A stretch of DNA of 64,000 nt from Escherichia coli (GTDB lineage: Bacteria; Pseudomonadota; Gammaproteobacteria; Enterobacterales; Enterobacteriaceae), in NCBI RefSeq assembly GCF_001677475.2, contig NZ_CP015229.1, one strand, 5' to 3'. Positions 6,886 to 51,580 of the stretch are shown in pieces. Each line of letters opens with the position of its first letter. Position 1 is the stretch's first letter. The notes under the pieces were generated by a model, which saw only the letters and a program-made list of their open reading frames with translations, made no database searches and was not told where the DNA came from. Both the position numbers and the translations under genes were made by a program.

Positions 6886-8058
6886 TTATCGGTTTCTGTC
6901 AGCGATTAAATTCAACACCACGTAACAAACGCCTCCGGCAATTAAACCCCAAAACGCAGAACCAATCCCGACCAGTGTCAATCCACTTGCCGTTACCAGA
7001 AATGCCACCACCGCCGCGTCGCGCTCACGCTCATTATGCAGCGCCTGATACAAACTGCCGCCAATGGTACTTAACAGCGCCAGACCTGCCAGCATCTGGA
7101 TCCAACTTACGGGCAGGGCAGCCATCATCCCGGTAATGGCACTACCAAACAGACCTGCGAGCAAATAGAAAATGCCGGCAACGGCAGCTGCCAGCCAACG
7201 TTGATCTTTATCCGGATGCGCTTCCGGGCTTTGGCAAATAGCCGCGGTGATTGCCGCAATACCGACGGAATAAACGCCGAAAGGGGAAAAAACCAGTGCC
7301 AGCAATCCAGTAAATACAATTAATGGCGAAACAGGAGCTGAATATCCGGCTGCTTTCATTGCTGCGATACCCGGTGCGTTTTGCGATGCCATCGTCACCA
7401 GAAAAAGGGGGAGTGCAACGCTCAGGCTGTGAGCAAACGAAAAATCAGGGGTAATATAAGTGGGGAGAACGGGTTTAAAGACAATATCAGTTGTGACAAC
7501 GTCACCTTGCGCGATAACGATCACGATCCCAATAATCATCGCGGCAATTACCGCATAGCGCGGCGCAACGGCCCTGGTTGCCAGCCATACCAGCAACATA
7601 CTGCCACACAACGTAAATTGACCATCCAGACTGGCAAACGCCTGTAAACCAAAGCGTAATAAAATCCCGGCAAGCATTGCCGCCGCAAGCGAGTGTGGAA
7701 TAATGCGCATCAGACGAGCAAAGAGTCCCGTTATGCCGCAGAGGACTATTAACGCGTTGGTGACAATAAAAACGCCGATGGCTTCGTTAAGTGTTAGTCC
7801 CTGCAATCCGGTGACCAACAAAGCCGCGCCAGGCGTTGACCATGCGGTGAGAACAGGTACGCGATACCATAATGTCAGAGTCAGCGTACTGACGCCCATT
7901 GCCAGCCCCAGCGCCGTCATCCAGCCAGAGATTTGTGCAGTGGTGGCTCCGGCGACAATCGCTGCTTGCCAGATTATTGCCGCTGAACTGGCGTAGCCAA
8001 TTAATACCGCCAGAAACCCCGCCAGTAGCGTGGGTGGAGGAATAGAAAACAGACGCAT
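6886..8058 (-). CDS. ydcO: BenE-family inner membrane transporter YdcO
   Basis: 390 aa from ATG (complement of 8056-8058), N-terminus MRLFSIPPPTLLAGF; the 477-aa track ORF includes an upstream extension. Confidence 0.85.
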   Translation of the reverse strand: MRLFSIPPPTLLAGFLAVLIGYASSAAIIWQAAIVAGATTAQISGWMTALGLAMGVSTLTLTLWYRVPVLTAWSTPGAALLVTGLQGLTLNEAIGVFIVTNALIVLCGITGLFARLMRIIPHSLAAAMLAGILLRFGLQAFASLDGQFTLCGSMLLVWLATRAVAPRYAVIAAMIIGIVIVIAQGDVVTTDIVFKPVLPTYITPDFSFAHSLSVALPLFLVTMASQNAPGIAAMKAAGYSAPVSPLIVFTGLLALVFSPFGVYSVGIAAITAAICQSPEAHPDKDQRWLAAAVAGIFYLLAGLFGSAITGMMAALPVSWIQMLAGLALLSTIGGSLYQALHNERERDAAVVAFLVTASGLTLVGIGSAFWGLIAGGVCYVVLNLIADRNR

Positions 8059-8149
8059 AGTCACCTCGTGCGTTATAACGTACAGGTACCGTAGCATTTG
8101 TCCGTTATAACGCACAAGTGATAAACTTCCGTTTTGCCGGAGGAGTCGC

Positions 8150-8686
8150 ATGGAAAATCTCGCTCGCTTTTTATCCACCACACTTAAACAACTACGCCAG
8201 CAGCGCGGCTGGAGTCTTTCGCGATTGGCAGAAGCGACGGGCGTTTCTAAAGCGATGTTAGGGCAGATTGAGCGTAATGAATCCAGCCCGACGGTCGCGA
8301 CATTATGGAAAATTGCCACCGGGTTGAATGTGCCATTTTCGACATTTATTTCTCCGCCGCAGTCCGCAACGCCTTCAGTTTATGATCCACAACAGCAGGC
8401 GATGGTGATCACTTCGCTGTTTCCTTATGATCCACAACTCTGCTTTGAACACTTCTCGATTCAGATGGCATCTGGTGCAATAAGCGAATCGACGCCCCAT
8501 GAGAAGGGGGTAATCGAACATGTCGTCGTCATTGATGGACAACTTGATCTGTGCGTTGATGGTGAATGGCAGAGCCTTAATTGTGGGGAAGGCGCTCGAT
8601 TTGCTGCAGACGCCACGCATGTCTATCGTAATCGTGGGGAGCAAATCGTACATTTTCATTCCCTCATCCATTACCCGCGCAGTTAA
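8150..8686 (+). CDS. ydcN: HTH (XRE-type)/cupin transcriptional regulator YdcN
   Basis: 178 aa; N-terminal helix-turn-helix (SRLAEATGVSKAMLGQIERN) and C-terminal cupin-like region. Confidence 0.85.
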   Translation: MENLARFLSTTLKQLRQQRGWSLSRLAEATGVSKAMLGQIERNESSPTVATLWKIATGLNVPFSTFISPPQSATPSVYDPQQQAMVITSLFPYDPQLCFEHFSIQMASGAISESTPHEKGVIEHVVVIDGQLDLCVDGEWQSLNCGEGARFAADATHVYRNRGEQIVHFHSLIHYPRS

Positions 8687-27945: not shown

Positions 27946-28295
27946 TGCTCTCCCTGATTGCTTTAATGAAAAAGTCATATAAGTTGCCATGAACAATGTT
28001 TATTCATCCTGGCGATGACAAGATTCACCATTATTCTTTATGGGTATAACTGTCGGCGCAGAATCCTACCTTTTATCGTGTAACGATGCAAAATAATCCC
28101 GCTATAAATATGAGGGGATAAAGGCGGCCGGCAACAAAATAGCAACCTGATGAAATTTTGACGGAAACAACCACTATTGGTTTGATGATGCCCGACGGCA
28201 GTCCTACTCTTGCGCCACTCGTTCGTCGCTCTGAACGCCAGTGGTTGCAGTGGACACTGGCGTGGTTGGCTCATTGAATAGTGAGGTGCTAGCAC

Positions 28296-29352: not shown

Positions 29353-29877
29353 TTATACAGCTTTCTTTACATCGTTTTCTCTTACAGGGAAATTATGTTC
29401 TTTGCCTTCATACTGAGACAAAATCTCTCTCACTTTTTCAGGTGGTAATGCCTGAAGAGTTTGCAGGGTTTTCTGTTGATCCACAGTAATCCCTAATGCC
29501 TCTAATGCCTTATCTTTACTGACAATTGTAGGCATAAGTCCTTTAATCCCTGCTACACGAATGATCTCCACAGCTGCGGCCTGCTCATCTGGTGTTAAGA
29601 AGCTCATTGCATAAATTAGCCTCTCATCAACTGTATGGGCGATTGATGTATGCACTGGTTTATCAGAAAGTGAGGCTCCTTTAATGGCCCTACGTGTTTC
29701 TTCTGGCAGACTGTTGATGTGATACTCATAAGCGACACCTTTCCCACCGTGACGCTGACGTTTTACCCAATCTTCCGCCACAGCTTTCCTGGTAATGTTA
29801 GTCGCCAACTTTGGTACACCAGGCATCCCTTCCAGCTCTTTCGCATTAAACCATTCTTTGATTTCAAAAGACATCAT
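29353..29877 (-). CDS. c: Transposable-phage repressor (Mu c / D108 repressor family)
   Basis: 174 aa, divergent from ner-A-B; N-terminal about 60 aa are roughly 50 percent identical to the N-terminus of the adjacent transposase. Confidence 0.8.
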   Translation of the reverse strand: MMSFEIKEWFNAKELEGMPGVPKLATNITRKAVAEDWVKRQRHGGKGVAYEYHINSLPEETRRAIKGASLSDKPVHTSIAHTVDERLIYAMSFLTPDEQAAAVEIIRVAGIKGLMPTIVSKDKALEALGITVDQQKTLQTLQALPPEKVREILSQYEGKEHNFPVRENDVKKAV

Positions 29878-30291: not shown

Positions 30292-32280
30292 ATGAAAGAA
30301 TGGTATACAGCAAAAGAGTTGCTCGGTTTGGCAGGTTTACCAAAGCAAGCCACTAACATTACACGTAAGGCACAAAGAGAAGGCTGGGAGTTCAGGCAGG
30401 TTGCAGGGACTAAAGGTGTATCATTTGAATTCAATATCAAATCATTCCCTGTCGCATTACGTGCTGAAATTCTGTTGCAACAAGGGAGAATTGAAACAAG
30501 CCAGGGGTATTTTGAAATCGCCCGCCCCACGCTGGAAGCCCACGATTACGATCGCGGGGCACTGTGGAGCAAATGGGATAAAGCCAGCGATTCCCAGCGC
30601 AGACTTGCTGAAAAATGGTTGCCTGCAGTTCAGGCCGCAGACGAAATGCTGAACCAGGGGATTTCAACAAAAACGGCTTTTGCGACCGTTGCAGGACATT
30701 ACCAGGTCAGCGCATCCACTTTGCGAGACAAGTATTACCAGGTACAGAAGTTTGCGAAGCCTGACTGGGCGGCTGCACTTGTTGATGGACGTGGTGCATC
30801 TCGTCGCAATGTTCACAAAAGTGAATTTGACGAGGATGCCTGGCAGTTTCTGATTGCAGATTATCTGCGACCGGAAAAACCCGCCTTCCGCAAATGTTAT
30901 GAGCGTCTGGAACTGGCAGCCCGCGAGCATGGCTGGAGTATTCCCTCCCGTGCCACGGCCTTTCGCCGGATTCAGCAACTGGACGAGGCAATGGTTGTTG
31001 CCTGTCGTGAAGGTGAACATGCACTGATGCATCTGATACCGGCACAGCAGCGAACTGTGGAACACCTGGACGCCATGCAGTGGATCAACGGCGACGGTTA
31101 TCTGCATAACGTCTTTGTACGCTGGTTTAACGGTGATGTGATCCGCCCGAAAACATGGTTCTGGCAGGATGTGAAAACCCGAAAAATTCTGGGCTGGCGC
31201 TGCGATGTGAGCGAGAACATTGATTCAATTCGCCTCTCGTTCATGGATGTGGTGACACGCTACGGCATCCCGGAAGATTTTCACATCACCATTGATAACA
31301 CCCGTGGGGCAGCGAATAAATGGCTGACGGGGGGCGCGCCCAATCGTTACCGCTTTAAGGTGAAAGAGGACGATCCAAAGGGACTGTTTTTACTGATGGG
31401 CGCGAAAATGCACTGGACAAGCGTTGTTGCCGGTAAAGGCTGGGGCCAGGCAAAACCTGTTGAACGTGCTTTCGGTGTTGGTGGGCTTGAGGAATACGTT
31501 GATAAGCATCCGGCACTGGCTGGCGCATATACGGGGCCAAATCCGCAGGCAAAACCTGATAACTATGGCGACCGTGCTGTTGATGCAGAGCTGTTTCTGA
31601 AAACCCTTGCTGAAGGTGTGGCGATGTTCAATGCCAGAACAGGCCGTGAAACAGAAATGTGCGGGGGCAAACTCTCGTTTGATGATGTTTTCGAGCGTGA
31701 ATACGCCAGAACGATTGTGCGTAAGCCAACCGAAGAACAAAAACGGATGCTGTTACTGCCTGCCGAAGCGGTGAACGTTTCACGCAAAGGCGAGTTTACG
31801 CTTAAAGTTGGCGGCTCCCTTAAAGGCGCGAAAAACGTTTATTACAACATGGCGTTAATGAATGCAGGCGTGAAAAAAGTTGTGGTCAGGTTTGATCCGC
31901 AGCAGCTACACAGCACAGTTTATTGCTACACCCTGGACGGTCGGTTTATCTGTGAAGCGGAATGTCTGGCACCTGTTGCATTTAATGATGCTGCGGCAGG
32001 CCGTGAATATCGCCGCCGCCAGAAACAACTGAAATCTGCAACTAAAGCAGCCATTAAGGCGCAGAAACAAATGGACGCGCTGGAAGTTGCTGAACTGCTG
32101 CCGCAGATAGCCGAACCAGCAGCACCAGAATCAAGGGTTGTTGGTATTTTCCGGCCTGTGGGTAACACAGTACGGGTTAAATATCGCACCCCCGATGATA
32201 AATACGAACCCGCTCGTGATGAATATCTGAATCAGTCACTGGATATTCTGGAACAGAAAAGACGTAAAAAAGCCATTTAA
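30292..32280 (+). CDS. A: DDE transposase (MuA family)
   Basis: 662 aa; Mu-transposase-like sequence throughout; N-terminal domain shared with the repressor. Confidence 0.93.
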
Positions 32281-35734: not shown

Positions 35735-35909
35735 GTCAACTGGCTTTGTCCTGCTGGTTGGCACCTGCGGGAATGATGCCTGCGATGCCATTCCGGTAAC
35801 GGAAAAAATCTGGCCCACAGAGCAGGCATGTATGCAGGTGATGGAGCGCATACAAAAACGTTATCCCAGTGAAATCTTTTATTGCGAAGAGGTATTACGA
35901 AATGAATAA
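35727..35909 (+). CDS. Hypothetical small protein with N-terminal hydrophobic segment
   Basis: 60 aa from ATG 35727 overlapping the preceding stop; MIKSTGFVLLVGTCGNDAC resembles a signal/lipoprotein-like N-terminus but is not a canonical lipobox. Confidence 0.4.
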   Translation: MIKSTGFVLLVGTCGNDACDAIPVTEKIWPTEQACMQVMERIQKRYPSEIFYCEEVLRNE

Positions 35910-36228
35910 ACCAGAGAATAAAGAAATGAAATTCACACCAGTTGATATTGATGGCGTCATGGCTAATTTAAAGATGCTGGAACGTATGCACGATATCGTT
36001 AAATATGGTATTGAGCATGACCTCACCGCCAGAGAAGTCCGGAGCATTATTAACCGTGAAATGAACCAGGTGGAAGCTGCCGTGGCGCTACAAAATGAAG
36101 CAGCCCGCGAGGAATACATTCGTCGCAGGCTGGGACTATCAAATAAAGATATTCTTACGGATGCTCAGATGGCTGAGGCTTTTGATATTCATCAGAATCT
36201 TGGTCTAACAAACGGATGGTATCAGTGA
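35902..36228 (+). CDS. Hypothetical early protein
   Basis: 108 aa from ATG 35902 with GAGGT Shine-Dalgarno. Confidence 0.5.
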   Translation: MNKPENKEMKFTPVDIDGVMANLKMLERMHDIVKYGIEHDLTAREVRSIINREMNQVEAAVALQNEAAREEYIRRRLGLSNKDILTDAQMAEAFDIHQNLGLTNGWYQ

Positions 36229-36421
36229 TTAGCTGTGATATTTGCAGAATGGGATTATTCGTTGTTCTCAATGCCGGAGCCTCTGCCGCTCCGCTTGCTG
36301 CGGCTTCGAGGATCGTTTTGCCTTCCTCTGCGGTAATCAGCCCCTTTCTGACAAGGAGTATCAGCAACCTTGAAGCAATGACATACCCTGCAACATCATA
36401 AGGCTGTTCACTGTTTTTCAT
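36155..36421 (-). CDS. Hypothetical antisense-oriented small protein
   Basis: 88 aa from ATG (complement of 36419-36421) with GAGGA Shine-Dalgarno 7 nt upstream on the reverse strand; 3' end overlaps the preceding plus-strand ORF by 74 nt. Confidence 0.35.
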   Translation of the reverse strand: MKNSEQPYDVAGYVIASRLLILLVRKGLITAEEGKTILEAAASGAAEAPALRTTNNPILQISQLITDTIRLLDQDSDEYQKPQPSEHP

Positions 36422-36494
36422 AAAAAGTTTCCTCTGTTTAGTGAGTGGATTCTGGCGGTGTTGCCGCACCGCCCCCTTTTCTGGAGGTACGATA

Positions 36495-37046
36495 ATGAAT
36501 CGCACATCCCTGATTAAATTAATTCATGTCGCCCGTCGTGATCTACAACTCGACGATGACACTTACCGCGCCTTTCTGGTGCAGTGCACAGGCAAGACCA
36601 GCTGCCGCGAGCTGTCCGTTGCACAACTGGAACGTGTGCTCGATGCCATGAAAGAGTGCGGTTTTAAAAAGCAGAAAAAACATCCCCGCCGTCGCTTTAA
36701 GGGGCATGTCACACCGCGCGAGAAGATTTATAAAATCTGGCAGCAGATGTTTCAGGATGGCTTTATCGCTGATGGCAGCGATGTCGCGCTGGACAAATAC
36801 GTTGCACGCCTGACGGCCAGACGTAATGGCGGTCAGGGGGTTTCCACGCTGGCCTGGTGTCACGGGGAATCGTTGCAGGTTGTGCTCGAAACGCTCAAGC
36901 AGTGGCACATGCGCTGCATCCGGGAAGCCTTTGCCCGACATGGTGTGCCGTTACCTGCAAGCCCATCCGGGCGGGAACTACGCGGATATGATGCACTGAC
37001 CAGTGCATATGCCCGCGCACGAAACAGCGGGAGAATTGCTGTATGA
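36495..37046 (+). CDS. gemA: GemA-family protein (Mu gp16-like)
   Basis: 183 aa from ATG 36495 with GGAGGT Shine-Dalgarno; position upstream of mor. Confidence 0.8.
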   Translation: MNRTSLIKLIHVARRDLQLDDDTYRAFLVQCTGKTSCRELSVAQLERVLDAMKECGFKKQKKHPRRRFKGHVTPREKIYKIWQQMFQDGFIADGSDVALDKYVARLTARRNGGQGVSTLAWCHGESLQVVLETLKQWHMRCIREAFARHGVPLPASPSGRELRGYDALTSAYARARNSGRIAV

Positions 37047-37492
37047 AACAGATGAAAGAGCAGGATTTATTCGAAGACCTTCGGGACGACAGCGTTCTGG
37101 AATATCTTCATGATTACCAGGAAAACACCGCTTATCCGGCGTTACTTTCTGAACTGAACGCACTGCTGCGTAAAGAGCTGGCCCGGATTGGCGCAGACCC
37201 TGCTCATTCCCTTGAGCTGGTTGTGGCGATTTGTCGCCATATCGGCGGGATGCAGGTTTATGTTCCGAGGGGGAATATTCTGGAGAATCTTGTCCGGGAT
37301 ATGCGTATCTGGCGTGATTTTAACGGTCATAATATTCCTGAACTGGTTCAGCGTTACGGGGTGACGTATAAAACCGTCTACAAGGCCATCAAACGGATGC
37401 GACGTCTGGAGCGCAATAAATACCAGCCGGATTTGTTTTACCCCTCCCCGAACCTGCCTCACCCCGTTCGTCGTCCACCACGACGCCCTTAA
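37043..37492 (+). CDS. mor: Mor transcription activator (Mor/C family)
   Basis: 149 aa; sequence closely matches recalled Mu Mor (DLFEDLRDDSVLEYL, VVAICRHIGGMQVYVPRG, YKAIKRMRRL). Confidence 0.88.
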   Translation: MKQMKEQDLFEDLRDDSVLEYLHDYQENTAYPALLSELNALLRKELARIGADPAHSLELVVAICRHIGGMQVYVPRGNILENLVRDMRIWRDFNGHNIPELVQRYGVTYKTVYKAIKRMRRLERNKYQPDLFYPSPNLPHPVRRPPRRP

Positions 37493-37500
37493 TCAATGAA

Positions 37501-37522
37501 GCCGGTAAATCCGGCTTTTTTT
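37501..37522 (+). terminator. Rho-independent terminator after mor
   Basis: GCCGG-TAAAT-CCGGC hairpin followed by a run of seven T. Confidence 0.6.
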
Positions 37523-37577
37523 ATGCCTCCGGCACCATGAAGCAGACCACGTTTAAATCTGCTTCACAGGTGCTTTT

Positions 37578-38174
37578 ATGGAAAATCAAAAATTCTCCCC
37601 GGCCTTTGAACATGCGCTGAATTTCATTCTGCGTCCCGATATCGAAGGCGTCTATGCCAATGACCCCACTGACCGTGGCGGTGAAACCAAATACGGCATT
37701 TCTGACCGCCGCGACGGTGTGACTGACGGCAAAACCGATGTCAACGGCGACGGCAAACCGGATACCCGCATCAGGGATTTAACCCGCGAACAGGTTGCTC
37801 AGATTTACTGGCGCGATTACTGGCTGCCTGCCGGATGTGACCAGTGGCCTGATGGCGTGGCGATGTTTGTGTTCGATGCGGCGGTTCAGCATGGCGTTAA
37901 AAAAGCTATCAGGATTTTGCAGGAAGCCGCGGATGTGGATGCTGACGGCATCATCGGCCCCCGTACCCGTAAGGCCGTGAGCCTGTCCACCCCGGACTGG
38001 CTGCTGGCCCGCTGCATTGTCCGTCGTTCCCGCTTTTATGCCGACATCATCAAGTCCAAACCCGCCCAGGGCAAATACCTGAACGGCTGGTTTAACCGCA
38101 TGGAAAAGCTGACCGACGCCTGTCTGGAAATCATCGATACCCCTCCAGGCATCATGTCCGCCACGCGGGGGTGA
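37578..38174 (+). CDS. Endolysin, glycoside hydrolase family 108 with C-terminal peptidoglycan-binding domain
   Basis: 198 aa; motif EGVYANDPTDRGGETKYGIS matches the GH108 family signature EGGY.NDP.DPGGETN.GI; DGIIGPRT in the C-terminal domain. Confidence 0.8.
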   Translation: MENQKFSPAFEHALNFILRPDIEGVYANDPTDRGGETKYGISDRRDGVTDGKTDVNGDGKPDTRIRDLTREQVAQIYWRDYWLPAGCDQWPDGVAMFVFDAAVQHGVKKAIRILQEAADVDADGIIGPRTRKAVSLSTPDWLLARCIVRRSRFYADIIKSKPAQGKYLNGWFNRMEKLTDACLEIIDTPPGIMSATRG

Positions 38175-45093: not shown

Positions 45094-45235
45094 CCCTCCC
45101 GCCGTAAATCCCCCTGAAACGCATCAGAAACGCGTTTTTTATTCTGATGGCGTGAATGTGCATTCTGACGTTTTTGAAGATGCTGTGGCGTTTTTGAAGG
45201 GGTTTTGAAGGGGGTATTTCCCCGTTTTCAGTGAA

Positions 45236-45257
45236 GCCGGTAAATCCGGCTTTTTTT
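45236..45257 (+). terminator. Rho-independent terminator after F; same sequence as the one after mor
   Basis: GCCGG-TAAAT-CCGGC plus seven T; 26 bp identical to 37497-37522. Confidence 0.6.
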
Positions 45258-45306
45258 CTGCCTTCCGCATACTGACCGTCGGTAACCCCAGACGACGGAG
45301 ACTGAC

Positions 45307-46263
45307 ATGCAACCGGAACTGCTGGCGCTGTGTTTTTCCCTGCCAGAACCCATCCCTGAGCTGACACCTGCTCAACTGCCGGAATGGCTCGAACTTGTCC
45401 CTGCGGGTGAGTTCACCGGGCGCGATGGCCGGACGTGGATTAACCGCAATCCGCATGAGGTGGTTGCCCGTTCGTCCGGCATCAAAATTCCGGTGGATAT
45501 TGAACACGCCACCGAAATTAAAGGCCCGCGTGGTGAAGATGCTCCGGCGTATGGCTGGGTGGAAGAACTGCGGGTGACGGACAGCAGCACCATTGAAGGG
45601 CGTGTTGTCTGGAGCGAGTCCGCCCGCTGGATGCTGAGCGAGCGCCGCTACCGCTATTACAGCCCGGCGTTTTTCTTTGACGCGGAAGGCGTAGTGACGC
45701 GCCTGTCCAGCGTCGGGCTGACCAACAAACCTAACCTGGATTTTCCTGCACTGAATACGGAGAAAAACCTGATGACAGTACCTGTGCAAATCACCGGCCT
45801 GCTTGGGCTGGCTGAATCTGCCACGGTGGACGATACCGTGGCCGCCATTAAACAACTTCAGGAGAACGAACAGGTGGCGCTGAACCGCGCACAGACACCT
45901 GATCTGACGAAGTTTGTGCCGGTGGAAACCCACAATCTGGCCCTGAACCGTGCCGAAACCGCAGAACAACGCCTTCAGCAACTTGAAGAGAAGGAAGCAG
46001 AAGCGCTTGTGGATGCGGCCATCGAAGCCGGAAAAGTGGCCCCGGCAAACCGTGACATGTTCCTTGCCACCTGCCGCACGGAAGAAGGCCGCAAACAGTT
46101 TGCGGAGTACACCAGAGGCGCACAGCCGCTGGTGAACAACGACAAGCCCAGCCAGGGCAAGGATAAACCCGCGCAGACACTGACCGACACCGAACTGGCG
46201 ATGTGCCGCAGCATGGGTATTACCGGGGAAGAGTTCCTCGCCGCTAAACCGAAACAGGAGTAA
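45307..46263 (+). CDS. Head protease/scaffold protein (Mu I family)
   Basis: 318 aa; immediately upstream of the major capsid gene. Confidence 0.8.
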   Translation: MQPELLALCFSLPEPIPELTPAQLPEWLELVPAGEFTGRDGRTWINRNPHEVVARSSGIKIPVDIEHATEIKGPRGEDAPAYGWVEELRVTDSSTIEGRVVWSESARWMLSERRYRYYSPAFFFDAEGVVTRLSSVGLTNKPNLDFPALNTEKNLMTVPVQITGLLGLAESATVDDTVAAIKQLQENEQVALNRAQTPDLTKFVPVETHNLALNRAETAEQRLQQLEEKEAEALVDAAIEAGKVAPANRDMFLATCRTEEGRKQFAEYTRGAQPLVNNDKPSQGKDKPAQTLTDTELAMCRSMGITGEEFLAAKPKQE

Positions 46264-46270
46264 GTAACAC

Positions 46271-47176
46271 ATGTCACAGACTATCAGTTCTGAAATCCTT
46301 CATGCACTGACCACCTGCCTGAGCGCCGCCTTTACCCGTGGACTGAGTGGTGTCGAACCGCAGTGGAATCGTATTGCTTCTGAGGTGCCGAGTTCGTCCG
46401 CCTCCAACACCTACGGCTGGATGAAAGATTTACCGGACATCAAAGAATGGGTCGGTGAGCGTCAGCTGGCAACGCTGGACGGTTATGGTTACACCATCAC
46501 CAACAAACTCTGGGAAAGTTCCATTCGCGTTAAGCGCGAACACATTGAAGATGACCAGATAGGTCAGTACAGCATTACCGCCGAACGCTATGGCCGTATG
46601 ACTGCTGTGTTCCCGGACAAGCTGTGTTACGCCCTGTTGTGTGCCGGGTTTAACACCCTGTGCTTTGACGGCCAGAACTTCTTTGATGAAGACCACCCGC
46701 TGGGCGACGGCACCTACAGCAACGTTGTCGGTACACCAGGAACGGACCAGGGCGAACCGTGGTTTCTGATTGATGAGTCGCAGGTGCTGAAACCCATCAT
46801 CTGGCAGACGCGACGCGCCTTTAAATTTGAAGCCCTGGACGATCTGAACAGCGAGCACACCTTCAAGAACCACGAGTTCCTGTACGGCGTGGACGGTCGC
46901 TGTAATGCGGGCTTCGGCTTCTGGCAGACCGCCGTCGGTTCCCGTGCAGCACTGACGGTGGAGAACTACAAAAAAGCCAATGAGTTGCTGCGGGGCATGA
47001 AGGGCACCAACGGTGAGCCGCTGGGCATCCGCCCGACCACCCTTGTGGTGGGGCCGAAAAACCGTGCGGACGCGAAGCTCATTATTGACGCCATGCTGGT
47101 TAACGGCGGCGATTCCAACATCTGGTACAAGGATGTGGAGATCGTGGACAGCCCGTACATCACCACCCCGGCATAA
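46271..47176 (+). CDS. Major capsid protein (Mu T family)
   Basis: 301 aa; position and sequence character. Confidence 0.88.
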   Translation: MSQTISSEILHALTTCLSAAFTRGLSGVEPQWNRIASEVPSSSASNTYGWMKDLPDIKEWVGERQLATLDGYGYTITNKLWESSIRVKREHIEDDQIGQYSITAERYGRMTAVFPDKLCYALLCAGFNTLCFDGQNFFDEDHPLGDGTYSNVVGTPGTDQGEPWFLIDESQVLKPIIWQTRRAFKFEALDDLNSEHTFKNHEFLYGVDGRCNAGFGFWQTAVGSRAALTVENYKKANELLRGMKGTNGEPLGIRPTTLVVGPKNRADAKLIIDAMLVNGGDSNIWYKDVEIVDSPYITTPA

Positions 47177-49341: not shown

Positions 49342-50817
49342 ATGTCGCTGGGTTCAATTCCTGATGATATCCGCGTCCCGCTCGTCGTGATCGATATTGA
49401 CAATTCACAGGCGCTGGACAGTGCATCCGCGCAAAGCCGAAAAATTCTGGTCATGGGCCATGCGGTATCGTCCGGCAGCGCAGACGCCCTGTCACTGACC
49501 CGCATCACCAGTGACAGCCAGGCAGAGCAGCTTTATGGCAAAGGGTCTATGCTGGCTGAAATGCTCAAAATACTGCGTCGTGCCAACACGTACACGGAAA
49601 CCTGGGCAATGCCGGTTGCCGCACCTGTTGGCGCTGCCGCAAAAGCCACGCTGACCGTGCTGGGGACAGCAACAGAGGCCGGAACGGTGGCACTACTGAT
49701 TAACGGTGTCTCCGTTCAGGTGGGCGTGAGCGCCGGGGATACCAAAGAAAACATTGCAAAAGCCATTGCTGATGCGGTGACGAAAAAGCCTGCCACGCAG
49801 GTGGCCGCTGCGGTGAAGGATGATGCCACGGATACCGTGGAGCTGACCGTGAACTGGCACGGCGTCACCGGCAACGGTGCCGACGTTCGCCTGAACTACT
49901 ACACCGGTGAAGCCTTCCCGGCAGGTGTGAAGGTGACCGCAACCGCGTTTACCGGCGGCACCGGGACACCGGAAATGGCAGACGCCGTTGCGGCCATCGG
50001 CCCGGAGTGGTTTACCGATATCATCGCCCCGTTCACCGACACGCAAAGCCTGAACACCCTGCGTGATGAACTGCTGAACCGCTGGGGGCCGCTCAGGATG
50101 ATGGAAGCGCAGCTATGGACGGCGTTTCGTGGCACGCACGGCGAGACAGGCACGTTTGGTGAAACCCGCAATGACTGGCTGATTAGCTGTATCGGCACCA
50201 ACCTGTCACCGCATCCGGCGTGGATGTGGGCCGCGTCATACGGCGCAACGGCAGCGTATCACCTTGCCATTGACCCGGCGCGTCCGCTTCAGACGCTGGT
50301 CCTGACCGGCATTCTGCCGCCTGCGCGTAATGTTCGCTGGGATATGCCGGAACGTAACCTGCTGCTGCATGACGGCATTGCCACGCACATGGTGGACGCC
50401 GGGGATAACGTCTGCATAGAGCGTGAAATCACCATGTACCGGGTTAATCAGTACGGTGATGCGGATGTGTCGTACCTGGATGTGCAGTCGCCCGCCACGC
50501 TGGGCCGTATCCGTTACATCATCAAAAACCGTTTCTCGAACCGTTATCCGCGCCACAAGCTGGCGGATGATGACGTGCTGGACTCGCTGGATGCGGGGCA
50601 GCCGGTGATGACGCCGAAGCTGTGCACCGCAGAGCTGCTGGATATCTGCCAGACCGAACTTATCCCGGCAGGCCTTGTGGAGAACTTCAGCGATTACAGG
50701 GACACGCTTCAGGTGACACGCGACAGCAGCGATAAAAACCGCCTGAACTTTATCTGCCACCCGAATCTGGTGAACCAGCTGCGTGTGCTGGCAGGCCTGA
50801 TTCAGTTCAGAGTTTAA
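49342..50817 (+). CDS. Contractile tail sheath protein (Mu L family)
   Basis: 491 aa from ATG 49342 with AGAGGAAG Shine-Dalgarno. Confidence 0.88.
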   Translation: MSLGSIPDDIRVPLVVIDIDNSQALDSASAQSRKILVMGHAVSSGSADALSLTRITSDSQAEQLYGKGSMLAEMLKILRRANTYTETWAMPVAAPVGAAAKATLTVLGTATEAGTVALLINGVSVQVGVSAGDTKENIAKAIADAVTKKPATQVAAAVKDDATDTVELTVNWHGVTGNGADVRLNYYTGEAFPAGVKVTATAFTGGTGTPEMADAVAAIGPEWFTDIIAPFTDTQSLNTLRDELLNRWGPLRMMEAQLWTAFRGTHGETGTFGETRNDWLISCIGTNLSPHPAWMWAASYGATAAYHLAIDPARPLQTLVLTGILPPARNVRWDMPERNLLLHDGIATHMVDAGDNVCIEREITMYRVNQYGDADVSYLDVQSPATLGRIRYIIKNRFSNRYPRHKLADDDVLDSLDAGQPVMTPKLCTAELLDICQTELIPAGLVENFSDYRDTLQVTRDSSDKNRLNFICHPNLVNQLRVLAGLIQFRV

Positions 50818-50826
50818 GGGGGCCGC

Positions 50827-51183
50827 ATGGCAAAAATTCTTGGCATGGCGACCATTCGCGTGAATGGCCGCGAAATTAAAACCGAGGGGAAATCCACGCT
50901 GAATCCAGGCGGCTTCAGTCGCACCCAGCATATGGGCGGCGGCAAGGTCTGGGGCATCTCCAGCAAGATGGCCTCGCCGTCCATCAAAGTGACCATTGCG
51001 GCGGCTGCGGATATGGACGTGATTGAAATCAGCAGCTGGGAAGACGTCACGGTGATGTTCTACGGCGACAACGGCCTGAACTACATGATGACGGGGTCCG
51101 CCACGGATAACCCGGCGGAGCTGGACGAGGATTCCGGCACCATCAGTGCAAACTTTATCGGTGAAAAATGCGTGAAGGTGTGA
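50827..51183 (+). CDS. Tail tube protein (Mu M family)
   Basis: 118 aa directly after sheath. Confidence 0.85.
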   Translation: MAKILGMATIRVNGREIKTEGKSTLNPGGFSRTQHMGGGKVWGISSKMASPSIKVTIAAAADMDVIEISSWEDVTVMFYGDNGLNYMMTGSATDNPAELDEDSGTISANFIGEKCVKV

Positions 51184-51184
51184 C

Positions 51185-51580
51185 ATGGCCGCGATGGAAT
51201 TTGAACTGAAACACGGGCTTCTGACCGGCAAAGGCACGGCAGATGAAACCCTGCATAAAACCGTGAAGCTGCGCGAACTGACTGCCAGTGATGTGATTGA
51301 TGCGCAACTGGCCGCAGAACGCGTCGTCATGGGCGGGAACGGAAAGGCGGTGGCCTACTGCTCTGAAGTGCTGATGGGGCTGGAGATGATGCGCCGTCAG
51401 GTTGCGGCCATCGGCAGTATTCCCGGCCCGCTGGACATGAAACAGTTGCGAATGCTCCACCCCGCAGACCTTGAGCTTATCAGCACGAAAGCTGCTGCGC
51501 TGGATGACATGCTTGAGGAGGTGGCAACGCGGGGGCGAACTGATGCCGCTGGCGGCGGCACTGATGAACCTGCTGGTTAA
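51185..51580 (+). CDS. Tail assembly chaperone
   Basis: 131 aa between tube and tape measure; an overlapping ORF in another frame (51471..51680) ends just inside the tape-measure gene. Confidence 0.7.
   Translation: MAAMEFELKHGLLTGKGTADETLHKTVKLRELTASDVIDAQLAAERVVMGGNGKAVAYCSEVLMGLEMMRRQVAAIGSIPGPLDMKQLRMLHPADLELISTKAAALDDMLEEVATRGRTDAAGGGTDEPAG

Follow-up and report, generated by a model that had tools for sequence, protein, structure and literature searches.

A probable minus-strand gene between gp14 and gemA

The reverse-strand open reading frame (ORF) between the gp14 and gemA homologues of a Mu-like Escherichia coli prophage is probably a genuine gene, an orthologue of phage Mu gp15 (Mup15) that forms a self-contained accessory unit in the gp14–gemA slot. 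The window is the whole stretch of DNA analysed, 64,000 nt long, and its relevant features are collected in Table 1. The first-pass annotation had described an 88-aa reverse-strand ORF with a well-spaced GAGGA Shine–Dalgarno (SD) sequence, converging on the preceding plus-strand ORF with a 74-nt overlap and situated just upstream of gemA. All of these elements are present: the ORF runs from an ATG at 36421 to a stop codon at 36155–36157, the SD core precedes the ATG by 8 nt, the overlapped ORF is the gp14 homologue, and a gene of the Pfam GemA family begins at 36495. Its description of all other prophage genes, the repressor excepted, as plus-strand fits the genes viewed (repressor, minus; MuA, plus), a set that is not exhaustive.

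Table 1. Positions of the gp15-type ORF, its signals and its neighbours in the window
Feature	Position	Strand	Remarks
Repressor	29353–29877	−	
MuA	30292–32280	+	
gp14 homologue (PHROG 6075), convergent neighbour	35902–36228	+	gp15 tail and terminator lie opposite its 3′ end
Predicted intrinsic terminator for gp15	36092–36132	−	Inside the gp14 coding sequence; hairpin 36132–36101, tail 36100–36092
gp15-type ORF, 88 aa	36155–36421	−	PHROG 8747 match, synteny with Mu, purifying selection
61-codon ORF, Mu_54 counterpart	36216–36401	+	Judged a shadow of gp15, not a gene
Presence/absence cassette, ~225 nt	36218–36442		Holds the SD and gp15 codons 1–68
Shine–Dalgarno GAGGA	36430–36434	−	8 nt 5′ of the ATG, read from the sequence
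Dyad/hairpin GGCGGTG-N6-CACCGCC, then CCCTTTTCTG	36454–36483	+	Between the divergent gp15 and gemA starts
gemA (Mu gp16 family), divergent neighbour	36495–37046	+	Pfam GemA E 3.8e-33; PHROG 286

The length of the ORF is by itself not beyond chance: the minus strand has 109 ORFs of 60 aa or more between 29.9 and 64 kb, and almost every one shadows a plus-strand gene. What sets this one apart is its conservation, position and signals. The SD core persists despite indels (GAGAGGA in Mu, GAAGG in the L012 lineage), and in the L012 lineage the start is fixed by an in-frame TAA located seven codons upstream of the ATG. The overlap with gp14 measures 62 nt in Mu and the closest relatives; it is longer in the window because a TGA-to-GGA change abolishes the usual gp14 stop and the reading frame runs on for four more codons.

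On sequence comparison the product is an orthologue of Mu gp15. It matches the PHROG 8747 profile over residues 1–86 (profile positions 1–86 of 88; E 5.6e-25), the family profile of Mu gp15 itself (E 6.6e-60 for the Mu protein), and is 52.9% identical to Mu gp15, which occupies the same position and strand. The Mu gene (NP_050619.1; ‘F-134’ in M64097), annotated in RefSeq at 7896–8162 on the minus strand, likewise encodes 88 aa in the gp14–gemA slot and shares the tail-to-tail overlap with gp14, the N-terminal motif, the SD and a downstream terminator. The two proteins differ at ~47% of residues, mostly in the middle and the tail. Matches found by tblastn in Mu, SfMu and Yersinia Mu-like phages lie in the same place on the same strand, and PGAP annotates the ORF in six E. 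coli prophages. A third lineage (P0005/P0006, 44–45% identical) has its ORF at the equivalent place, where it diverges from gemA and overlaps a gp14-like gene. Slot and orientation are the same in all three lineages, whose sequences diverge at 37–40% of bases.

The comparative sample is small because the family is very narrow. An exhaustive profile search recovered five clusters among 1.84 billion representatives, and word-indexed protein searches returned only two matches for gp15 and one for the reverse ORF of phage D108 described below. Three long repeat proteins (P0007–P0009) that surfaced as candidate relatives were discarded as spurious. Among E. coli genomes, 53 carry the gp15 region and 89–113 carry a related gemA.

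gp15 occupies a variably filled slot

The gp15 region behaves as a cassette that is exactly absent from E. coli JCKP02 (L009) and Yersinia phage vB_YpM_3 (L010). In both, the gp14 stop runs directly into the bases that precede the conserved hairpin, and a 4-nt microhomology (TGAT) marks the junction. JCKP02 and a cassette-bearing prophage have identical gp14 proteins, which favours a recent deletion as the probable origin of the cassette-less state; the microhomology is not decisive. All four Yersinia Mu-like phages, whether they carry gp15 or not, form plaques at 37°C and establish lysogeny at 26°C (PMC10434027). gp15 is thus an accessory, dispensable gene, missing from near-identical phages that plaque and lysogenise.

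Other reverse genes are found in the same position. Phages D108 and Mu_3F6 have a 119-aa reverse ORF there, and E. coli PEC422 has a reverse gene of 138 aa, termed ‘DUF2513 domain-containing’ by RefSeq/PGAP; its match to Pfam DUF2513 is sub-threshold (E 0.0097, 16.7 versus 29.6 bits). The gp14–gemA slot is a hotspot that holds gp15, an unrelated or only remotely related reverse gene, or nothing.

The D108/Mu_3F6 ORF (PHROG 38610; VUD37876.1), which is unannotated in D108 records, lies in the slot and orientation of gp15: it too overlaps gene 14, has the dyad upstream and is followed by a minus-strand terminator. The two proteins match PHROG 32893 over the same N-terminal region, and an hhalign comparison of them aligns residues 3–40 with 29–66 (E 0.0026). 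The DNA is nevertheless unrelated, the D108 protein is longer and has an acidic N-terminal extension, and pairwise BLASTP is not significant. These profile matches are suggestive of homology between the 119-aa protein and gp15.

Transcription signals flanking the ORF

A minus-strand-specific terminator of its own is predicted for gp15 inside the gp14 coding sequence. The hairpin (CAGCCUGCGACGAAUGUAUUCCUCGCGGGCUG) starts 23 nt past the gp15 stop and is followed by the tail CUUCAUUUU, with a folding energy of −19.9 kcal/mol (z −3.2). In Mu, L012 and D108 the reverse ORF is likewise followed by an equivalent hairpin with a T-rich tail, and the Mu copy is the TransTermHP terminator at 7839–7873 in AF083977.1. 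Across lineages 94% of cells are paired, compensatory changes occur at three pairs, and the G-U pairs form in the minus-sense RNA only. The unit opposed to the early operon would consist of an SD and ATG, 88 codons, and this terminator hidden in the gp14 coding sequence.

The first-pass annotation had also pointed to a GC-rich stem-loop followed by a T-rich tract between the ORF and gemA. This dyad is real, its stem-loop proper lying at 36454–36473 with eight pairs, but it is kept in relatives that lack gp15 and belongs to the gemA upstream region and not to the gp15 cassette. The stem is invariant, with no covariation available, in all lineages including D108 and the cassette-less phages; the dyad is missing where gemA abuts other genes (L020, L021). 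Its folding energy (−16.8 kcal/mol) is unexceptional against plus-strand shuffles (z −0.96), it has no Rfam match, and it falls inside the ‘semi-early promoter’ annotated in Mu at 8151–8217. The idea of a Mor-type activator site was dropped because the Mu Mor site/early terminator (GCCGGTTAATCCGGC) is unlike the dyad.

A consensus scan combined with cross-lineage alignment found no σ70-like minus-strand promoter in the 260 nt upstream of the ORF in any lineage, or up to 3 kb upstream in the window; such a search could miss weak or activator-dependent promoters. gp15 would most likely be transcribed separately from the early operon, and mainly from the prophage, because it opposes Pe-driven transcription and has its own predicted terminator. 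The suggestion made at first pass that the ORF is a moron is supported by its presence/absence pattern, the replacement of the slot's content, its own SD and the predicted terminator; the promoter expected of such a unit was not found.

The arrangement of these signals also bears on an explanation in which the output is the minus-strand transcript, instead of or besides the protein. Such a transcript would damp Pe read-through into mor by transcriptional interference or by forming an RNA duplex with the gp14 3′ end, and the ORF would be exchangeable cargo. Basal Pe transcription does occur in Mu lysogens (PMC3820752), the terminator and dyad persist where the coding content is unrelated and also in phages that lack the cassette, and the same slot holds three unrelated reverse genes. 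We nevertheless consider this explanation unlikely. The promoter that it calls for was not found in the window or in any lineage, and some Mu-like prophages (L020, L017) have neither reverse unit nor dyad. Lying within gp14, the terminator is bound to be conserved in part, and the N-terminal protein sequence is under strong purifying selection, which shows that the protein matters.

The gp15 product is predicted to be soluble

The product is an acidic protein of 88 aa (9.6 kDa, pI 4.8) with a conserved core at residues 1–60. Constraint is concentrated in the N-terminal 38–60 residues, which carry the motif QxYDVAGYx[IV]AS...LLVxKx[IL]ITxxEG and are weakly SHOCT-like; the match to PF22746 covers residues 23–40 only and is below the Pfam gathering threshold (18.6 versus 27 bits; E 0.0014). 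The middle evolves fast. The tail (residues ~65–88), which lies over gp14, is variable and predicted to be disordered, and reads into the 3′ end of gp14 under no constraint. AlphaFold2 (AF2) models the protein as three helices in a soluble bundle (pLDDT 72.6), so that gp15 is predicted to be a soluble three-helix protein and not a membrane protein.

Searches for function gave no leads from NCBIfam or from a PDB sequence profile search, and the only Foldseek match in PDB/BFVD was Mu F-134 itself. PADLOC-DB defence models gave no matches up to E 1 for the window protein, Mu gp15, P0006 or the D108 ORF, and our literature search found no published work or expression data on Mu gp15. The protein would most likely act through protein–protein binding or oligomerisation, in the kind of non-essential host- or phage-interaction role that is typical of morons.

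The first-pass annotation had noted a hydrophobic central segment and proposed a small membrane or exclusion protein. A hydrophobic stretch exists, but it is N-terminal (residues 11–29; AGYVIASRLLILLVRKGLI) and contains both R and K. Its 19-residue Kyte–Doolittle maximum of 1.51 is near the usual cut-off of 1.6, the orientation of gp15 suits prophage expression, and small reverse-strand or overlapping exclusion genes occur in the Pseudomonas Mu-like phage Fc02 (PMC9936078); all three points could be taken to favour an inner-membrane or superinfection-exclusion protein. The hydropathy maximum drops to 1.45 in Mu and 0.94 in the third lineage, however, so the three lineages share no conserved segment of transmembrane grade by this measure. 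Conserved charges interrupt the stretch (R18/K18, R25/K25 and K26), and the N-terminus is not signal peptide-like. Together with the soluble AF2 model and the lack of PADLOC matches, these features make a membrane or exclusion protein very unlikely.

Comparative evidence favours the minus strand

The updated GenBank record of Mu (AF083977.1), prepared by expert curators, drops gp15 and places Mu_54 at 7960–8127 on the plus strand instead. The third codon positions of the two frames (minus-frame product, MKNSEQPYDVAGY...; plus-frame product, MVSVISCDICR...) coincide. If Mu_54 were the real gene, it would be co-transcribed with the early operon and the minus-strand ORF would be its open shadow. 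Its strand is that of all its neighbours, its frame is open for 55–61 codons in two lineages, and its dN/dS is also below 1 (0.48–0.51), as would follow from wobble positions shared with gp15.

Several comparisons separate the frames, and together they favour the gp15 frame as the coding one. Across three lineages the gp15 ORF is unbroken at 86–90 codons despite 71–77 differences per 192 nt, with 0/0/0 stops in the minus frame versus 1/2/3 in the plus frame; an internal stop interrupts Mu_54 in the L012–L016 lineage, and its start and stop positions vary between lineages. dN/dS for gp15 is 0.27–0.33 overall and 0.09–0.19 in codons 1–38. Both identity and BLOSUM scores are lower for the Mu_54 frame in all three lineage pairs (BLOSUM 108–127, versus 161–173 for gp15). 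A frame-pair codon-usage log-likelihood ratio gives +13/+29/+38 bits for the minus frame and −30/−30/−54 bits for the plus frame; known genes score +34 ± 9 bits and their antisense frames −40 ± 12 bits, which puts Mu_54 squarely within the antisense distribution.

The plus-frame product is also modelled poorly by AF2 (pLDDT 49.6, pTM 0.20, versus the pLDDT of 72.6 for gp15), and it has no significant PHROG match, as the window ORF has no match at all and Mu_54 reaches only E 0.027. A plus-strand gene would leave unexplained the minus-strand SD, the minus-strand terminator and the conservation of gp15 codons 1–11, which lie beyond the end of Mu_54. The annotation of Mu_54 as the gene at this position therefore has little probability in our view.

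Two measures are less informative. Site-wise counts of synonymous and non-synonymous changes do not separate the frames (sign tests, p = 0.23–0.89) because the third codon positions of both coincide, and we do not claim that synonymous-rate analysis by itself assigns the strand. That analysis, proposed at first pass, shows a dN/dS well below 1 but does not tell the strands apart site by site. The general codon-usage score of gp15 is low for a phage gene (0.10 versus 0.36 ± 0.09 bits per codon); it is at the top of the shadow-ORF range and not outside it, and is only moderately supportive.

The chance ORF that the first-pass annotation had offered as an option is excluded by the orthology with Mu gp15, the conservation in three divergent lineages and the purifying selection. 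That neither strand codes, and that the conserved DNA is regulatory (the semi-early gem promoter region) with an ORF open by chance, has a probability close to negligible: although the prophage has many long chance ORFs on its minus strand and the Mu semi-early promoter annotation overlaps the 5′ end of the ORF, that annotation spans only its first 12 nt, substitutions are codon-periodic (32 of 71 at third positions), only one frame pair has a dN/dS well below 1, and ORF length is kept in all three lineages.

Relation to morons and to other overlapping phage genes

Morons of temperate phages are a concept of Hendrix and Juhala, exemplified by lambda bor, lom and rexAB. gp15 resembles them in being present in some close relatives only, between conserved genes, with its own translation signals and a predicted terminator, and in being dispensable for lytic growth and lysogeny. 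It differs in that its terminator sits in a neighbouring gene and not in the insert, and in a GC content that is little lower than that of its flanks (46.5%, against 49% in the early region).

A second comparison is offered by Fc02, in which expression of olg1/olg2 and gene 10 was shown by strand-specific RNA-seq (PMC9936078). As in the gp15 case, a transposable phage has small overlapping genes on opposite strands of its early/regulatory region. Those of Fc02 lie elsewhere, beside the repressor and ner, and no sequence relationship to gp15 is expected; the exclusion activity is that of Fc02.

Implications

gp15 was already known. Listings of it go back to the first sequence of the Mu left end (‘F-134’), and it appears in RefSeq as gp15, always without a function, and nothing in these findings would surprise phage specialists. 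What they bear on is a conflict between references, in which RefSeq/PGAP and the 2002 Mu annotation place the gene on the minus strand and the updated GenBank record uses the plus strand. The comparative evidence favours the former, and says that the current GenBank record of Mu probably annotates the wrong strand at gp15. The predicted terminator, which serves one strand from within the coding sequence of the other and shows compensatory changes, would be an example of dual constraint.

A broader reading joins these observations, and we put it forward only tentatively, as something we doubt more than we believe. The region would be a dedicated antisense slot with fixed flanks, namely the minus-strand terminator in the gp14 coding sequence and the conserved dyad before gemA, and the Mu strand annotation would be wrong. 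Its prophage-expressed occupants (gp15, the D108 119-aa protein and the DUF2513-like protein) would modulate gem operon activity or serve in defence or counter-defence directed at other phages, while antisense transcription would gate early-operon read-through into mor.

To our knowledge, the semi-essential early region of Mu is still mostly uncharacterised. Within it, the anatomy of an autonomous unit in a variably filled slot makes gp15 a reasonable candidate for a host- or phage-interaction function that may be expressed during lysogeny.

Identification of a Mu gp15 family member

The reverse-strand ORF lies in a Mu-like prophage that, besides the repressor and MuA transposase, encodes Gam, gp11, gemA, mor and a GH108 lysozyme; a host amino-acid permease gene ends at 27996. 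The first-pass annotation had described an 88-residue ORF with a GAGGA Shine-Dalgarno sequence, and its start, stop, length and 74-nt overlap with the convergent plus-strand gene gp14 (end 36228) were read off as described. At 36214-36228 the window has GGA in place of the TGA that normally ends gp14 (in Mu and in near-identical E. coli prophages), so that gp14 gains four codons and the overlap grows from the usual 62 nt to 74 nt; through this one substitution gp15 also has R rather than S at residue 70. The ORF is not remarkable by length alone, because the prophage holds 109 minus-strand ORFs of at least 60 aa, nearly all of them shadows of plus-strand genes. Two very long ones, of 377 aa at 45139-46272 and 364 aa at 50236-51330, run antisense to the Mu I protease/scaffold gene and tail-region genes; neither matches a Pfam family, and both are most likely shadows as well.

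Features of the gp15 region and its prophage setting
Feature	Position	Strand	Details
Repressor with Mu DNA-binding domain	29353-29877	minus	
MuA transposase	30292-32280	plus	
Predicted terminator hairpin	36132-36101	minus	10 pairs, 12-nt loop; starts 23 nt past gp15 stop
gp15 ORF	ATG 36421, stop 36155-36157	minus	88 aa
Shine-Dalgarno GAGGA	36434-36430	minus	8 nt 5' of ATG
GC-rich stem-loop	36454-36473		followed by CCCTTTTCTG; 5' of gemA
gemA	start 36495	plus	divergent from gp15; Pfam GemA, E 3.8e-33

The product aligns with PHROG 8747 from end to end (E 5.6e-25) and is 52.9% identical to that of the phage Mu reverse-strand ORF 7896-8162, which is Mup15/gp15 (88 aa) in RefSeq NC_000929 and 'putative F-134' in the 1991 left-end record M64097. 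Every defining feature tested was found, and the window gene belongs to the Mu gp15 family, previously known as a hypothetical protein. The ORF is called by the NCBI pipeline in every E. coli Mu-like prophage examined. The gp15 region is present in 58 of 5,426 complete E. coli genomes, nearly full in 53 and at least 99% identical in 21. The family is narrow: a profile search run exhaustively against 1.84 billion representative proteins yielded only five true clusters. Its most divergent members, P0005 and P0006 of a third lineage (44-45% identity), have no megablast-level match (~85% or more) in complete E. coli genomes; they occupy the same slot in the same orientation, divergent from gemA and with a ~56-nt overlap with a gp14-like gene. 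The ORF is thus kept in related prophages, in Mu and in the third lineage, the conservation on which its reality had been made to depend. The prophage is mosaic: RIVM E. coli genomes are 99.5% identical to it over gp14-gp15 (35900-36500) and 93.7% over gemA (36440-37046).

The minus strand carries the coding sequence

Two phage Mu reference records conflict over gp15. The updated GenBank record AF083977.1, credited to expert re-annotation (PMC9239132), has gp15 removed and carries the plus-strand ORF Mu_54 (7960-8127; L001:2536-2703) instead; AAF01092, now version 2, is the Mu_54 product, whereas NC_000929 still has minus-strand gp15. The plus-strand equivalent in the window spans 36216-36401. 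Between the window and Mu types, 71 of 192 non-overlapping bases differ, and dN/dS is clearly below 1 in two of six frames: the minus ORF (0.27-0.33) and the Mu_54-type frame (0.48-0.51). The third codon positions of these two frames coincide, so periodicity and site-wise synonymous counts cannot separate them. The suggested synonymous-rate analysis bears out selection on the minus ORF in its dN/dS, but the site-wise counts do not differ significantly from those of the plus frame.

Comparison of the minus-strand ORF with the plus-strand (Mu_54-type) frame
Measure	Minus ORF	Plus frame
Stops in 64-codon core (window/Mu/L012, third lineage)	0/0/0	1/2/3
Core identity	32-36/64	28-31/63
BLOSUM62 score	161-173	108-127
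Codon-usage LLR, sense vs wobble-sharing antisense (bits)	+13/+29/+38	-30/-30/-54
PHROG match	full length	window ORF none; Mu_54 E 0.027, not significant
AF2 mean pLDDT / pTM	72.6 / 0.56 (7-sequence alignment)	49.6 / 0.20 (3 sequences)

The codon-usage log-likelihood ratio was trained on 20 genes of the window prophage; scores are +34 +/- 9 bits for known genes and -40 +/- 12 for the antisense frames of these genes. One plus-frame stop interrupts the body of the Mu_54-type ORF in the third lineage, and the best-conserved codons of gp15 (1-11) fall past the Mu_54 stop. The Shine-Dalgarno core 5' of the minus-strand ATG is kept in all three lineages, and an in-frame stop 7 codons upstream in the third lineage fixes this ATG as the start. 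We conclude that minus-strand gp15 is the real gene and the plus-strand ORF its shadow, with one caveat: at 0.10 bits per codon, the window ORF has a low general coding score for this phage, and a few shadow ORFs reach the same value. This assignment, added by the present analysis, contradicts the current GenBank Mu record.

The gp15 protein

In all five comparisons, dN/dS is 0.09-0.19 for codons 1-38 and 0.34-0.92 for codons 39-64. The constrained core reads QxYDVAGYx[IV]AS..L..LLVxKx[IL]IT..EG, followed by APA[LM][RK] and LQ[LI]. The last 20-24 residues, encoded opposite the gp14 3' end, vary among lineages and have low model confidence. An IS256-family insertion replaces the gp15-like C-terminal tail in one prophage; its transposase (Transposase_mut, L016:4236-5444) lies in the 3' end and leaves the 66 conserved N-terminal residues intact. 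AF2 places helices at residues 7-25, 31-46 and 61-79, and the protein is acidic (pI 4.8). The product is predicted from these models to be soluble and helical, with a constrained N-terminal domain. A small membrane protein, as once proposed, is not supported, because the most hydrophobic 19-residue stretch contains conserved charges and scores 1.51 in the window, against 1.45 and 0.94 in orthologues. The sole domain hint is a SHOCT-like match below the Pfam threshold (18.6 versus 27 bits), and assignment to that family was rejected. Foldseek (PDB, BFVD), PDB sequence, NCBIfam and PADLOC searches returned nothing besides Mu's own protein; the lack of a PADLOC match likewise sets aside a known defence protein.

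Hairpins flanking gp15

The hairpin inside gp14, added by the present analysis, was missed by a simple scan because its loop is 12 nt. Its folding energy is -19.9 kcal/mol (z -3.2), and CUUCAUUUU follows it on the minus strand. The same hairpin-and-tail arrangement lies 3' of the reverse ORF in Mu, the third lineage and phage D108, and the Mu copy coincides with an annotated TransTermHP terminator (7839-7873). Across an alignment of six sequences, 94% of cells are paired, compared with 38-54% in slid controls, and at three pairs both partners have changed. Several G-U pairs of the minus-sense RNA would turn into C-A mismatches in the plus sense, and the T-run occurs on the minus strand only, which orients the element for the reverse gene. 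With a small sample and a location within coding sequence, the grounds for a predicted minus-strand terminator are good but not conclusive.

The GC-rich stem-loop noted between the ORF and gemA was found. Its stem, GGCGGTG/CACCGCC, is invariant without covariation in all lineages with an intergenic gap, including those lacking gp15, and the element therefore belongs to the gemA upstream region; the dyad is absent from E. coli PEC422. With its U-tract UUUUCU, the element resembles a weak terminator of the plus strand; it sits inside the annotated Mu 'semi-early promoter' and has no Rfam match. It may be an attenuator, a 5' hairpin of the gem transcript or an operator. It does not resemble the Mor site/early terminator dyad, found at 37498-37518 in the window. 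In that region (37043-38174), mor (149 aa) is directly followed by this Mu-Pm-like dyad/terminator (GAAGCCGGTAAATCCGGCTTT plus a T-run) and then the GH108 lysozyme; the separate middle operon and second Mor-family activator (C) of Mu are absent. The region after mor varies among relatives (L003 versus L004).

An exchangeable slot upstream of gemA

In E. coli JCKP02 and in vB_YpM_3, a Yersinia phage that forms plaques, precisely the equivalent of window 36218-36442 is missing, and the gp14 stop is joined to the sequence directly 5' of the conserved gemA hairpin; JCKP02 shares an identical gp14 protein with a prophage bearing this segment. Phages D108 and Mu_3F6 instead have a 119-aa reverse ORF on unrelated DNA (PHROG 38610, E 8e-83; in D108 at L011:1612-1971, minus, GQ357916.1 7853-8212). 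Its codon usage is strongly sense-like (+78 bits), and it is annotated in Mu_3F6 (VUD37876.1) and in neither D108 record. A shared PHROG 32893 match and a weak hhalign match to the gp15 N-terminal region are only suggestive of homology with gp15. A third, unrelated reverse gene of 138 aa (WP_000687314.1) fills the slot in PEC422 (NZ_CM168005.1, L021:1053-1469, minus). RefSeq/PGAP names it 'DUF2513 domain-containing'; our Pfam match is weak (E 0.0097; 16.7 against a 29.6-bit cut-off). It overlaps the preceding plus-strand gene by 39 nt, and a minus-strand hairpin (GGCGGC-GACA-GCCGCC) with a T-rich tail lies downstream, inside that gene. Other prophages have plus-strand genes straight up to gemA. 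This reverse-strand cargo slot is newly recognized here.

In E. coli, 53 genomes carry gp15 and 89-113 a related gemA, so that about half of the prophages with such a gemA have the gene. Four of four Yersinia Mu-like phages form plaques at 37 C and establish lysogeny at 26 C (PMC10434027); gp15 is present in two and absent from two, and is therefore dispensable for both cycles under laboratory conditions.

Proposed mode of action

gp15 is a conserved, selected and translatable minus-strand gene with its own Shine-Dalgarno sequence and predicted terminator, and it is both exchangeable and dispensable. In these respects it behaves like a classical moron, an option raised in the first-pass annotation, except for the promoter: scans of 260 nt upstream in every lineage, and to 3 kb in the window, gave no sigma-70-like match on the minus strand. 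The gene lies head-on to the strong early promoter Pe and carries its own end signal, so it is probably transcribed independently, chiefly when Pe is repressed, as in the lysogen. An alternative, which does not exclude a role for the protein, is that antisense transcription across the slot modulates read-through into gemA-mor. The gp15 protein itself probably works through protein binding or oligomerisation, in an accessory function of the moron type.
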